Positions 1-7,923 of a stretch of 7,923 nt of DNA are shown in pieces; position 1 is the first letter of the stretch; every line of letters starts with the position of its first letter. Under the pieces are notes generated by a model. It saw only the letters and a program-made list of their open reading frames with translations. It was not told the DNA's origin and searched no databases. Origin of the DNA: a virus. Taxonomy: Monodnaviria; Loebvirae; Hofneiviricota; Faserviricetes; Tubulavirales; Inoviridae. The position numbers were made by a program, and so were the translations under genes. The DNA lies in IMG/VR virus record IMGVR_UViG_2651869724_000001, positions 1 to 7,923 of that record; one strand, given 5' to 3'.

Positions 1-1062
<1,062 letters not shown>

Positions 1063-1070
1063 TCACCCTC

Positions 1071-1361
<291 letters not shown>

Positions 1362-1375
1362 TCACCACCTGATTA

Positions 1376-3025
<1,650 letters not shown>

Positions 3026-3029
3026 TTCA

Positions 3030-3200
3030 TCACCAGTAAAAACTAAATGGTTTTACAATTCGACGGAAATCCTGATCGGCTTTTTCAAGAATAACTGAAA
3101 CAACATATTCTTCAATGGTTGTATTTTTATTGTAAATAATTCTTTCTATCTGCTCGATAGTGTATTCTGGCAATTTAACTTTAAATTCTTGAGTAGACAT
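3030..3200 (-). CDS. 56-aa hypothetical protein, possible ribbon-helix-helix fold; absent from the ORF track (below its length cutoff)
   Basis: Minus-strand ATG at 3200-3198 is 5 nt after GAGGT. Translation: [56 protein letters not shown]. Its TGA at 3032-3030 lies 4 nt before the pIII ATG (TGATGAAATG). The strand-helix-helix spacing is my reading of the sequence, not a search result. Confidence 0.35.
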
Positions 3201-3292
3201 AAAACCTCACAAATTAGATTTAAAGCCAATGACGCAACATAACCCACAAAGGGAACCAAACATCATAAAAATAAAATCAAACATAAATATCC

Positions 3293-3316
3293 AAAAAAAG
3301 GGCGGAATATCCGCCC
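3293..3316 (-). terminator. Rho-independent terminator after the major coat gene
   Basis: Perfect 7-bp stem gggcgga (3300-3306) / tccgccc (3310-3316) with a 3-nt loop. On the minus-strand transcript it is followed by a 7-U tract (plus-strand A run 3293-3299). Sits 19 nt past the pVIII stop, as in Ff phages. Confidence 0.55.
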
Positions 3317-3334
3317 TTCCTCATAAAAAACAAC

Positions 3335-3583
3335 TCAGATACTTCTGATGGCTCCCCATACTTTACGAACGCCAGCAAAAGTCAGATAAACTGTAACTCC
3401 TGCAACACCGATAGAAAGAATAACAGCAGAAACAGAAGACATATCAATGCTGTTAGTCAATGATGAAAAATCGACTGTACCAGCAAAAGACGGAGATACA
3501 GCAAGAGCAGAAGCAGCGGAAAAAGATAAAGCTGCAACTTTCTTATCAACACCCTTAAAAAAATTGGTCATTTTTGCAAACAT
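3335..3583 (-). CDS. Major coat protein (pVIII-like) precursor, 82 aa
   Basis: AAGGAG lies 8 nt upstream of the ATG at 3583-3581. Signal-like N-terminus MFAKMTNFFKGVDKKVAALSFSAASALAVSPSFA, then a short mature part with a hydrophobic core and basic C-terminus (RKVWGAIRSI). The listed 102-aa ORF (to 3643) extends upstream with no RBS. Confidence 0.6.
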   Translation of the reverse strand: MFAKMTNFFKGVDKKVAALSFSAASALAVSPSFAGTVDFSSLTNSIDMSSVSAVILSIGVAGVTVYLTFAGVRKVWGAIRSI

Positions 3584-3585
3584 AA

Positions 3586-3759
3586 TTAAAGTCTCCTTAT
3601 TAAACTCCAAATTGTGGAAATAATCATGCCAAGAAAAAAACAAAATACTGGCAGTGAAAATCCCGTTAAAAACGCCGAGGAATAAATCCCCGACACATCA
3701 GGTATCCCCACGCAAATAGCATTAATTTGCGTGGAAACTGAATCCGAATTAACAGACAT
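3586..3759 (-). CDS. 57-aa small hydrophobic protein in the pVII/pIX slot (candidate minor coat protein)
   Basis: ATG at 3759-3757 follows 4 nt after the TAG of the upstream gene. Translation MSVNSDSVSTQINAICVGIPDVSGIYSSAFLTGFSLPVFCFFLGMIISTIWSLIRRL has a hydrophobic C-terminal half and basic end. Its TAA (3588-3586) lies inside the pVIII RBS region. Below the ORF-track cutoff. Confidence 0.35.
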   Translation of the reverse strand: MSVNSDSVSTQINAICVGIPDVSGIYSSAFLTGFSLPVFCFFLGMIISTIWSLIRRL

Positions 3760-3763
3760 AAAA

Positions 3764-5600
<1,837 letters not shown>

Positions 5601-5636
5601 TAATCACCTTCTATTGAAAGGACATAGAGGTAAATT

Positions 5637-5852
5637 TTGATGAAAAAAGAAACAAAGCGCGGAGACACAACCGTAAGGATTAACGAAAACAGAAAACTGG
5701 AGCTAAAACGAAGAGTGCTGGAAATCGGTAATAAAACAGGTGAGCTACTAAAACCATCAGAGATAGTAAACCACTTAATAGACAACTACTTAGATGATGC
5801 GGTGAAAGATCTAATAAGCAAAGAAGAACTTAAGAAAAAAAAGGCAATGTGA
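5637..5852 (+). CDS. Ribbon-helix-helix-like DNA-binding regulator (71 aa), candidate phage repressor
   Basis: Listed ORF with AGAGG 8-10 nt upstream. TTVRINENRKLELKRRVLEIG...KPSEIVNHLIDNYL reads as strand-helix-helix. Divergent from the phage operon, the position taken by repressors such as RstR in CTXphi-type phages. Confidence 0.45.
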   Translation: MMKKETKRGDTTVRINENRKLELKRRVLEIGNKTGELLKPSEIVNHLIDNYLDDAVKDLISKEELKKKKAM

Positions 5853-5908
5853 TCCCTTTTCCTGCATTCAGCAGACTACCCGCGAAGGATCGAAAGGATA
5901 CGGTTTAA

Positions 5909-6142
<234 letters not shown>

Positions 6143-6193
6143 TAAAGGAATGTAGAGTCCCGACAGGATTAACAACATCAGCTCAGAAAAACC

Positions 6194-6334
6194 ATGCACG
6201 ACATGATTCTGGATTTACTAATGAAATACCTGATTGCCGGTAGTCTGTTCGGCATGTTTTTGTTCAGCGTCATAACAATAGTGTTGCCAATCGTCCTGAG
6301 GGCACACAATAAAATCAACAGAAGCAACGACTGA
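6194..6334 (+). CDS. 46-aa hypothetical small membrane protein
   Basis: ATG at 6194, TGA at 6332-6334. MHDMILDLLMKYLIAGSLFGMFLFSVITIVLPIVLRAHNKINRSND has one predicted transmembrane helix and a basic tail. No clear Shine-Dalgarno; below the ORF-track cutoff. Confidence 0.25.
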   Translation: MHDMILDLLMKYLIAGSLFGMFLFSVITIVLPIVLRAHNKINRSND

Positions 6335-6343
6335 ATACACAAC

Positions 6344-6371
6344 AGTGCGCACAATGGCGTTATGTATAAAA
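6344..6371. other. dif-like candidate XerC/XerD recombination site (possible prophage attachment junction)
   Basis: AGTGCGCACAA-TGGCGT-TATGTATAAAA compared with E. coli dif GGTGCGCATAA-TGTATA-TTATGTTAAAT. XerC-arm-like half matches 9/11. XerD-arm-like half matches 8/11 only if the central region is 5 bp, and 5/11 with canonical 11-6-11 spacing. Confidence 0.3.
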
Positions 6372-6410
6372 AGGCCGCTGCGGTGGAAAGTATCGCAGCG
6401 GCCTTTTCAA
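6366..6410. terminator. Bidirectional rho-independent terminator
   Basis: Perfect 12-bp stem aaggccgctgcg (6371-6382) / cgcagcggcctt (6394-6405) with 11-nt loop, flanked by an A run (6366-6372) and a T run (6404-6407). Confidence 0.5.
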
Positions 6411-6517
6411 CATAACGCGTGTCACATTATGTGCACCAATATTGTAACAGCAAAGTTGTAATGTCCGCCTTGGGCTAAGTTAAGATGTCCGGCGTGTATA
6501 ATCAAGTAAGGATTACC

Positions 6518-7048
6518 ATGACGGCTCTCGCAGCGGAGTTTTTCACTTTGGATGAAGTTAACCGACTCAAGATTATTCAGGACGTCATCGACCGGCGTCT
6601 GACAACACAGATGGCAGCGCAGCGGCTTGGTATCTCCGACCGCCAGTGCCGTCGTCTGCTTGCGCGTTATCGTGAAGATGGTCCGCTTGGCATGACCAGC
6701 CGCCGTCGTGGTAAATCCAGCAATAATCAGCTGCCTCAGGGACTGGCCGCATACGCGCTGAATATTATTCGCGAACGCTATAACGATTTCGGTCCGACTC
6801 TGGCCTGTGAAAAACTGGCTGAGGTTCACGGCGTTCATATTTCCAAAGAAACGGTTCGTAAGTTGATGACTCAGGCCAGTCTTTGGGTTCCACGTAAGCA
6901 ACGTGCACCAAAAATCCAGCAGCCGCGTTACCGACGTGCCTGTGCCGGTGAACTCATACAAATTGACGGCTGCGACCATCACTGGTTTGAAAACCGGGGA
7001 CCCAAGTGTAAGCACTGGTTTACGTTGATGACGCCACCAGTCGTCTGA
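6518..7048 (+). CDS. Transposase N-terminal segment (HTH DNA-binding region), ending at a frameshift
   Basis: ATG at 6518 (MTALAAEFF...) lies 5 nt after AAGGAT; the listed ORF starts at 6485. HTH-like TTQMAAQRLGISDRQCRRLLARYREDG. The frame ends ...IQIDGCDHHWFENRGPKCKHWFTLMTPPVV, while the -1 frame opens at 7012 and reads ALVYVDDATSRL. Confidence 0.55.
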   Translation: MTALAAEFFTLDEVNRLKIIQDVIDRRLTTQMAAQRLGISDRQCRRLLARYREDGPLGMTSRRRGKSSNNQLPQGLAAYALNIIRERYNDFGPTLACEKLAEVHGVHISKETVRKLMTQASLWVPRKQRAPKIQQPRYRRACAGELIQIDGCDHHWFENRGPKCKHWFTLMTPPVV

Positions 7049-7923
7049 TGCAGCTTCGTTTCGTAAAATCTGAATCGACTTTCACCTATTTTGAAGCGAC
7101 ACGGGGCTATATTGAAATGCATGGTAAGCCACTGGCGCTCTATAGCGACAAAGCCAGTGTCTTCAGGATCAACAATAAAAATGCCACTGGCGGCGAAGGC
7201 GAAACGCAGTTTGGACGTGCGATGCACGAACTGAACATTCAAACCATCTGTGCAGAAACCAGCGCAGCAAAAGGTCGTGTTGAGCGGGCGCATCTAACCC
7301 TTCAGGACAGACTGGTCAAGGAACTCAGGCTTCAGGGCATCAGCACAATGGAATCTGCTAACGCATTTGCCGAAGAGTTCATGAACGATTACAACCGACG
7401 TTTTTCAAAAGCGCCTCGCCAGGAGTTCGATGTTCATCGGGAACTGGATGTCGATGATGATCTTGATATGGTGTTTACTTGGCGTGAAGCCCGCCGCGTG
7501 TCGAAATCACTCACTGTGCAGTACGACAAAGTGCTTTACCTCATTGAAGACAATGAGTTCAGTCGTCGGGCGATTGGTAAATACATTGATGTCTGGCATT
7601 ACCCTGACGGACATAAAGAGCTCCGGCTTAATGGCGTATCACTTCCCTACTCCACCTATGACAAACTGTCTGAAATCGATCAGGGTGCCATTGTGGACAA
7701 TAAACGTCTTGGCCGTGCGCTGGAGATGGCGCAACTTGTGCAGGCCGAACGGGATAATAACCGGTCACAATCAGTGCCATCCGGTGACGGCCCTTCACGC
7801 AGGCGCAAAGCCCCTACGACGAAGAAATCCCAGCGTTCTTTGGACCAGGACGATATGTTCAATGCACTTGTAAAACTTCAGACACGAGCTGAGGAGATTT
7901 TTGGTGAACGCAACCAAAAATGA
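7048..7923 (+). CDS. Transposase catalytic-core segment (rve/DDE integrase fold); reading frame is open from 7012
   Basis: DDE-like motifs: LVYVDDATSRL (encoded 7015-7047, upstream of the listed ATG), LYSDKASVF, and AETSAAKGRVERAHLTLQ. The TGA falls at 7921-7923, the window end. Confidence 0.55.
   Translation: MQLRFVKSESTFTYFEATRGYIEMHGKPLALYSDKASVFRINNKNATGGEGETQFGRAMHELNIQTICAETSAAKGRVERAHLTLQDRLVKELRLQGISTMESANAFAEEFMNDYNRRFSKAPRQEFDVHRELDVDDDLDMVFTWREARRVSKSLTVQYDKVLYLIEDNEFSRRAIGKYIDVWHYPDGHKELRLNGVSLPYSTYDKLSEIDQGAIVDNKRLGRALEMAQLVQAERDNNRSQSVPSGDGPSRRRKAPTTKKSQRSLDQDDMFNALVKLQTRAEEIFGERNQK

Follow-up and report, generated by a model that had tools for sequence, protein, structure and literature searches.

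A one-base deletion in the transposase gene of a defective IS1202-family insertion sequence next to dif in Escherichia coli

The prophage, the Xer site and the ends of the element

The window (the whole stretch of 7,923 nucleotides analyzed here) is occupied over positions 1–6409 by an inovirus-type filamentous prophage that is integrated at dif and adjoins an insertion sequence (IS). Its recognizable genes encode a Zot-domain protein cut by the window start (1–843), a DUF2523 protein (1071–1358), a pIII-like protein of 549 aa (1376–3025, minus strand), and a Rep_trans replication initiator (4109–5305). At about 1700–2100, within the pIII-like ORF, (Gly-Ser-Gly-Thr)n / (Gly-Thr)n repeats extend over a very long tract that is likely a length-variable linker; matches in several pieces reveal that prophage copies differ in length at this tract. 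Human isolates, E. coli O166:H15 among them, have the same prophage next to hipA, there without the IS.

A dif-like Xer site (6410–6437), read directly from the sequence, forms the prophage–chromosome junction, with the XerC arm ttatgtgcacc at 6427–6437. In the IS-free strain JNE21-003 (L002) the arm of this site reads ttatgcgcacc and hipA-side DNA comes next, and other carriers have the canonical dif sequence ATTTAACATAATATACATTATGCGCACC at the same place. Immediately after the arm comes AATAT (6438–6442), the left copy of a 5-bp target site duplication (TSD) and the only one inside the window; the right AATAT follows ...TTTGACA in full-length loci. This duplication is present on both sides of the element in nine loci, it reads AATTT in the Klebsiella pneumoniae plasmid pS161-2.2, and the empty site of JNE21-003 has AACAT once. 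In the full-length loci the element starts with TGTAACAGCAAAGTTGTAATGTCC (window position 6443) and ends with ...GAACTTAGCTTTGACA. The left terminal inverted repeat, with its 5'-TGT, extends over 6443–6495 on the plus strand, and its pairs I1 and I2 match the right end in locus L006. The motif GCWAAGTTNWRATGTCC occurs twice within it (6450–6466 and 6474–6490, plus strand), and comparison of the ends in L006 and pS161-2.2 (L013) revealed two copies at each end. These motifs are likely transposase binding sites, and a two-motif end layout has been described for ISAjo2 (PMC10132070). A preliminary description of this DNA had looked to the sequence beyond 7923 for the inverted repeats and the duplication, and reading past the window indeed provides TGT...ACA ends and a 5-bp AATAT duplication.

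The insertion in the window lies between chromosomal dif and hipA, with the left end of the element exactly 5 bp from the XerC arm (6427–6443) of the prophage–chromosome hybrid site at 6410–6437. The same 5-bp spacing recurs at the canonical E. coli dif in most carriers of the element (L003–L012, see below), at the canonical dif of E. coli PSS-13 (L020), and at the dif-like sites of the plasmids pSY3626 (L001), pS161-2.2, and pD610-HI2 (L014). The IS in the window sits beside a filamentous prophage that likewise uses dif, and at least three different integrated elements are found to the left of dif in L003–L012. On the other side, the hipA toxin gene downstream of the element varies among these carriers (440, 337, or 260 aa), which suggests repeated hipA truncation in carrier lineages.

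A transposase gene split at codon 165

The sequence and its translation agree that the transposase frame opened at ATG 6518 ends at TGA 7046–7048 (ORF A, 6518–7048, plus strand). Our mechanical ORF list starts this upstream frame at ATG 6485; ATG 6518 is the annotated start in intact copies and is preceded by AAGGA. ORF A is translated into 164 native residues followed by 12 out-of-frame ones, its C-terminal part reading ...GPKC-KHWFTLMTPPVV before the TGA. In the −1 frame, a TAA at 7009–7011 is followed by a reading frame that opens at 7012 as ALVYVDDATSRL-MQLRF..., overlaps ORF A by 36 nt, and ends at TGA 7921–7923, the very end of the window. The frame ending at 7046–7048 and the one opening at 7012 had both been located in the preliminary description at these same coordinates. 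The first part of the −1 frame, corresponding to codons 166–177 (ALVYVDDATSRL, 7012–7047, plus strand), has no start codon and is translated in neither ORF. The second ORF proper (ORF B, 7048–7923, plus strand) begins with an ATG that overlaps the ORF A stop codon (TGATG) and encodes residues M178–K468, including D211, E256, Q263, and the C-terminal domains, as deduced from its translation and from the NCBIfam profile NF033594 (ISNCY family transposase); it is identical to residues 178–468 of the intact protein.

Profile searches show how these pieces belong together. NF033594 matches ORF A over profile positions 1–148 (E 1e-57, 196 bits) and ORF B over positions 161–367 (E 4e-81, 273 bits), and it matches the intact 468-aa protein over positions 1–367 without interruption (512 bits, cut-off 250). 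Since the two ORFs match consecutive segments that form a single stretch in the intact homolog, they are the halves of one gene; a pairing by chance is ruled out and the split is real. ORF A contains two helix-turn-helix (HTH) domains and the first strand of the catalytic fold. Four Pfam HTH families (HTH_32, HTH_28, HTH_23, and HTH_29) were detected in ORF A, and no Pfam family of any kind in ORF B. Even at E values up to 10, Pfam yields no catalytic-domain family; the NCBIfam profile does match.

Pairwise alignment with the intact copy on pSY3626 places a single gap at the join (window GTGTA-AGCAC, intact GTGTACAGCAC); apart from this gap and one synonymous substitution, the window is otherwise 99.9% identical to the pSY3626 gene. 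In intact copies at 99.5% identity, TGT-ACA-GCA stands where the window has TGT-A-AGCA. The missing base, located between 7010 and 7011 on the plus strand, is the C that separates two A's in TGT ACA GCA (Cys164-Thr165-Ala166), that is, the C of the ACA codon of Thr165. The intact sequence around it, GTACAGC, contains no homopolymer, and the deletion allele reads TGTAAGCA within 7000–7020. The split had already been attributed to a 1-bp deletion, and intact copies do differ at the join by exactly one base; however, the lost base is this C and not, as first proposed, an A from an AAA codon.

To locate the break relative to the catalytic residues, the intact protein was aligned (alignment A3) with two 441-aa Acinetobacter transposases (L018 and L019, which replaced the pseudogene L015), with which it shares 48–49% identity. 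The catalytic triad of TnpAjo2, D142/D203/E247 (PMC10132070), aligns with D150 (in IQID), D211 (in YSDK), and E256 (in GRVER). The D150 codon (6965–6967) is in ORF A, upstream of the break, and those of D211 (7147–7149) and E256 (7282–7284) are both downstream. The first catalytic Asp had been expected in the ALVYVDDATSRL region, but the alignment puts it at D150, in ORF A. That region is nonetheless rich in invariant columns (L167, V168, D171, D172, A173, T174, and L177), and Q263, seven residues past the catalytic E, is also invariant in A3. The invariant DD171-172, encoded at 7027–7032 within the VDD motif, are the additional conserved Asp pair that, in the description by Siguier et al. (2022, bioRxiv 10.1101/2022.12.17.520857), lies after the first catalytic residue and before the second.

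With one C lost from codon 165 (ACA) of a single 468-aa transposase gene, translation ends after 164 native residues plus the 12-residue out-of-frame tail. The break falls inside the RNase-H-like catalytic fold, D150 being kept in the N-terminal fragment, and residues 165–177, with the invariant DD171-172, are lost from native-frame translation, the first downstream start being Met178 (7048). No single polypeptide carries the full DDE triad. From the division of the triad between the two ORFs we infer that this copy is probably unable to transpose autonomously, which upholds the main reading of the preliminary description, namely that the IS is probably inactive. Some ORF B could be produced by re-initiation at the TGATG overlap and might contribute to a two-piece enzyme, though residues 165–177 would still be missing from it. 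A single-sequence AlphaFold model had a mean pLDDT of 40, too low to be of use, and the intact protein had no hits among PDB sequences at E values up to 10.

Relatives, distribution and decay of the element

The element belongs to the IS1202 family and, within it, to the ISAba32/ISAjo2 (5-bp TSD) subgroup, an assignment based on its TGT...ACA ends, its 5-bp TSD, and the position of its left inverted repeat (IRL) 5 bp from the XerC arm; the window copy is a defective derivative of a member of this subgroup. Dif-proximal insertion, TGT...ACA ends, and a 5-bp TSD are the properties that define ISAjo2/ISAba32 (Harmer et al. 2023, PMC10132070; Siguier et al. 2022, bioRxiv 10.1101/2022.12.17.520857). 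The element shares with them a homologous transposase with N-terminal HTH and DDE domains, an aligned triad, the extra DD pair, and the Q seven residues past E, as well as imperfect TGT...ACA repeats with an internal second binding motif, the 5-bp TSD, a left end on the XerC side of dif at the characteristic spacing, and a fixed orientation. It differs in that the Acinetobacter IS are about 1.5 kb long, whereas the full element here has 3.6 kb and two passenger genes, and in that the window copy is frameshifted and internally deleted. tISKpn21 from K. pneumoniae (2,278 bp, Tnp of 467 aa, 5-bp TSD, dif-targeting) is also an enterobacterial transporter IS of the same subgroup that carries a passenger gene and lies 5 bp from the XerC arm, but its cargo and length are different. 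The intact version of the window transposase shares only 74.8% amino acid identity with proteins that bear the annotation ISKpn21 transposase, and on this ground we rejected an identification as ISKpn21; the two elements are related but distinct. Tn7 (TnsB) and phage Mu (MuA), whose transposases the published TnpAjo2 model resembles (PMC10132070), likewise have 5'-TGT ends and several end-binding sites; no TnsA, TnsC, TnsD, or TnsE partners accompany the element. In the same hosts, IncHI1, IncHI2, and further plasmids carry intact relatives.

A megablast search of 5,426 complete E. coli genomes retrieved 72 records that cover the region, the best match being the plasmid pSY3626_190k_tetX with a single 468-aa ISNCY family transposase (WP_000125669.1). 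When a 100-base query spanning the join was used, all 57 near-identical E. coli records among these genomes aligned over 101 bases at 99.0% identity, and the best of 144 matches to plasmids likewise spanned 101 bases. As the window has only 100 bases over this span, the intact copies carry an extra base; alignment to intact copies of the same IS, the comparison on which the preliminary description had made its deletion depend, therefore gives exactly one base fewer in the window. A 40-mer centered on the deletion had no match in the 5,426 complete E. coli genomes, nor did an exact 37-mer of the deletion allele in the GTDB species-representative genomes. By exact look-up, the 176-aa truncated product was found on 98 contigs (152 index blocks); the 291-aa ORF B product occurs on 85 contigs, and the intact 468-aa protein is recorded on at least 1,000. 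GenBank annotation of E. coli already includes the 176-aa and 291-aa products (CTS84437.1 and CTS84402.1). We read ten carrier loci (L003–L012) from SRA, ENA, and DDBJ runs, a metagenome, and three GenBank assemblies (SRR30894221, SRR29091400, ERR134537, DRR223769, SRR31034855, SRR16896037, ERZ28661716, GCA_001265975.1, GCA_001266445.1, and GCA_017117135.1), and the deletion recurs in all ten at one and the same chromosomal position. Over its full length, the window itself matches JHSM01000038.1 at 99.96% identity.

The window contains the left 1.48 kb of a defective transporter IS. The complete element, known from pS161-2.2, measures 3,598 bp and carries as passengers a DUF3800 protein gene and a pentapeptide-repeat protein gene. 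Past position 7923, the window copy has lost 1,439 bp of the passenger region of that element; with this internal deletion, whose junction is at L006 11653/11654, the DUF3800 gene is mostly gone and the pentapeptide-repeat gene is partly gone, and L003 and L004 have undergone further deletions. A 22-nt near-repeat (86%) links window 7028–7049 (transposase, DDATSRL) with L006 11555–11576 (DUF3800, DDASRL), maybe by chance.

The deletion junction is the same in 10/10 loci and the TSD in 9/9 of those in which the right end survives. Among loci the element itself varies by 0–1 nt (apart from L003, with its further deletion), and the right-flank chromosome by up to 2%. The shared frameshift and junction imply that the defective copy has one origin and reached diverged lineages. 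Judging from these comparisons, simple vertical decay would not predict an element differing by 0–1 nt within flanks that have diverged by 2%, and its spread needs either homologous recombination or mobilization in trans. That the TSD is shared was rejected as evidence for one insertion event, since the target position is fixed, and it cannot decide between these two routes: E. coli PSS-13 and B19374 possess, at the same position and with the same AATAT, a variant that has other cargo and whose 467-aa transposase is intact. The sister element of PSS-13 (L020 3983–7554), located at dif–hipA and resembled by L021, has as cargo the genes of a hypothetical protein and of an S-4TM family putative pore-forming effector, which may make up a defense module.

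Origin of the split and significance of the defective copy

The arrangement of an upstream HTH-encoding ORF, a downstream catalytic ORF in the −1 frame, and a 36-nt overlap superficially recalls the IS3 and IS1 families, and might suggest a fusion of the two ORFs through programmed −1 ribosomal frameshifting or through transcriptional slippage. Yet ORF A contains no X-XXY-YYZ heptamer in frame, as the preliminary description had noticed, and 6950–7100 is free of runs of five or more identical bases. A slip anywhere in 7012–7046 would replace conserved residues of the β2 strand, and the split is inside the catalytic fold and not between domains. All relatives examined, including those at 96%, 75%, and 48–49% protein identity, are single ORFs: between 48% and 100% identity, intact proteins have 441–468 aa encoded in one frame, in agreement with the single transposase ORF reported for the IS1202 family (Siguier et al. 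2022, bioRxiv 10.1101/2022.12.17.520857). A two-ORF structure in intact homologs would have spoken for a programmed event, and every intact relative examined proved to be single-ORF; the initial reading against frameshifting holds. The single-frame transposase of 400–500 aa is found in the intact 468-aa copies and not in the window copy, split at codon 165. Other split relatives break elsewhere: the K. pneumoniae allele P0003, present on 61 contigs, is truncated at residue 191, and an E. coli IncFIB/IncI plasmid copy (L016) is broken at about aa 286–291. On the strength of the single-ORF relatives, the lack of a slippery heptamer or base run, and these different breaks, programmed frameshifting is very unlikely, with a probability close to nil, and the likeness to the IS3/IS1 two-ORF layout is accidental. 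NCBIfam models of IS3 and IS481 match weakly, a sign of distant DDE homology. Pseudogenization recurs among related transposases, the A. johnsonii copy (L015) being likewise a pseudogene, and never at the same site.

An error of sequencing or assembly, such that the genome truly has the C and an intact gene, deserves attention because single-base indels are frequent assembly artifacts and the allele is found in 0/5,426 complete E. coli genomes. It is nevertheless highly improbable: the intact sequence at the site, GTACAGC, is not a homopolymer, the ten loci with the identical deletion come from independent runs and submitters, and the exact truncated protein is on 98 contigs. The homopolymer or sequencing error entertained in the preliminary description is refuted by this non-homopolymer context and by the recurrence of one allele in many independent assemblies. 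The deletion is real and heritable, an allele of one chromosomal copy that many E. coli isolates share. By analogy with IS1 InsA, IS911 OrfA, and the Tn5 inhibitor, truncated ORF A might have been retained as a DNA-binding inhibitor that would act at the ends of related elements or at the dif-proximal target and, in the same way, would limit further insertions beside dif. The start, the ribosome-binding site, and every HTH domain of ORF A are preserved, the defective element is conserved to 0–1 nt among lineages with up to 2% divergence in their flanks, and the same hosts harbor intact relatives on IncHI1, IncHI2, and other plasmids. An inhibitor that protects dif from these plasmid-borne relatives would, if true, explain the presence of an identical copy in 2%-diverged lineages. 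Both parts of this proposal seem to us very unlikely, however, as selection is not evidenced (the copies are too alike for dN/dS), the element is otherwise decaying in these strains, a consensus scan upstream found no promoter, and an allele missing from all 5,426 complete E. coli genomes is not widespread.

We consider it highly probable that the window copy is an ordinary decaying relic, in which a real, inherited 1-bp deletion has inactivated the transposase of a known dif-targeting IS, with no expression mechanism involved. The type of element and its targeting of dif were already known and the finding is, in this respect, ordinary. For annotation, it means that two "putative transposase" CDSs should become one pseudogene, belonging to a defective IS1202-family member. 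The locus also offers a clear enterobacterial (E. coli) chromosomal example of the published Xer-site targeting by the IS1202 family and shows that such copies decay in place. In view of the sister element of different cargo at the same position, transporter IS of the ISAba32/ISAjo2 subgroup may shuttle varied cargo into the dif region.
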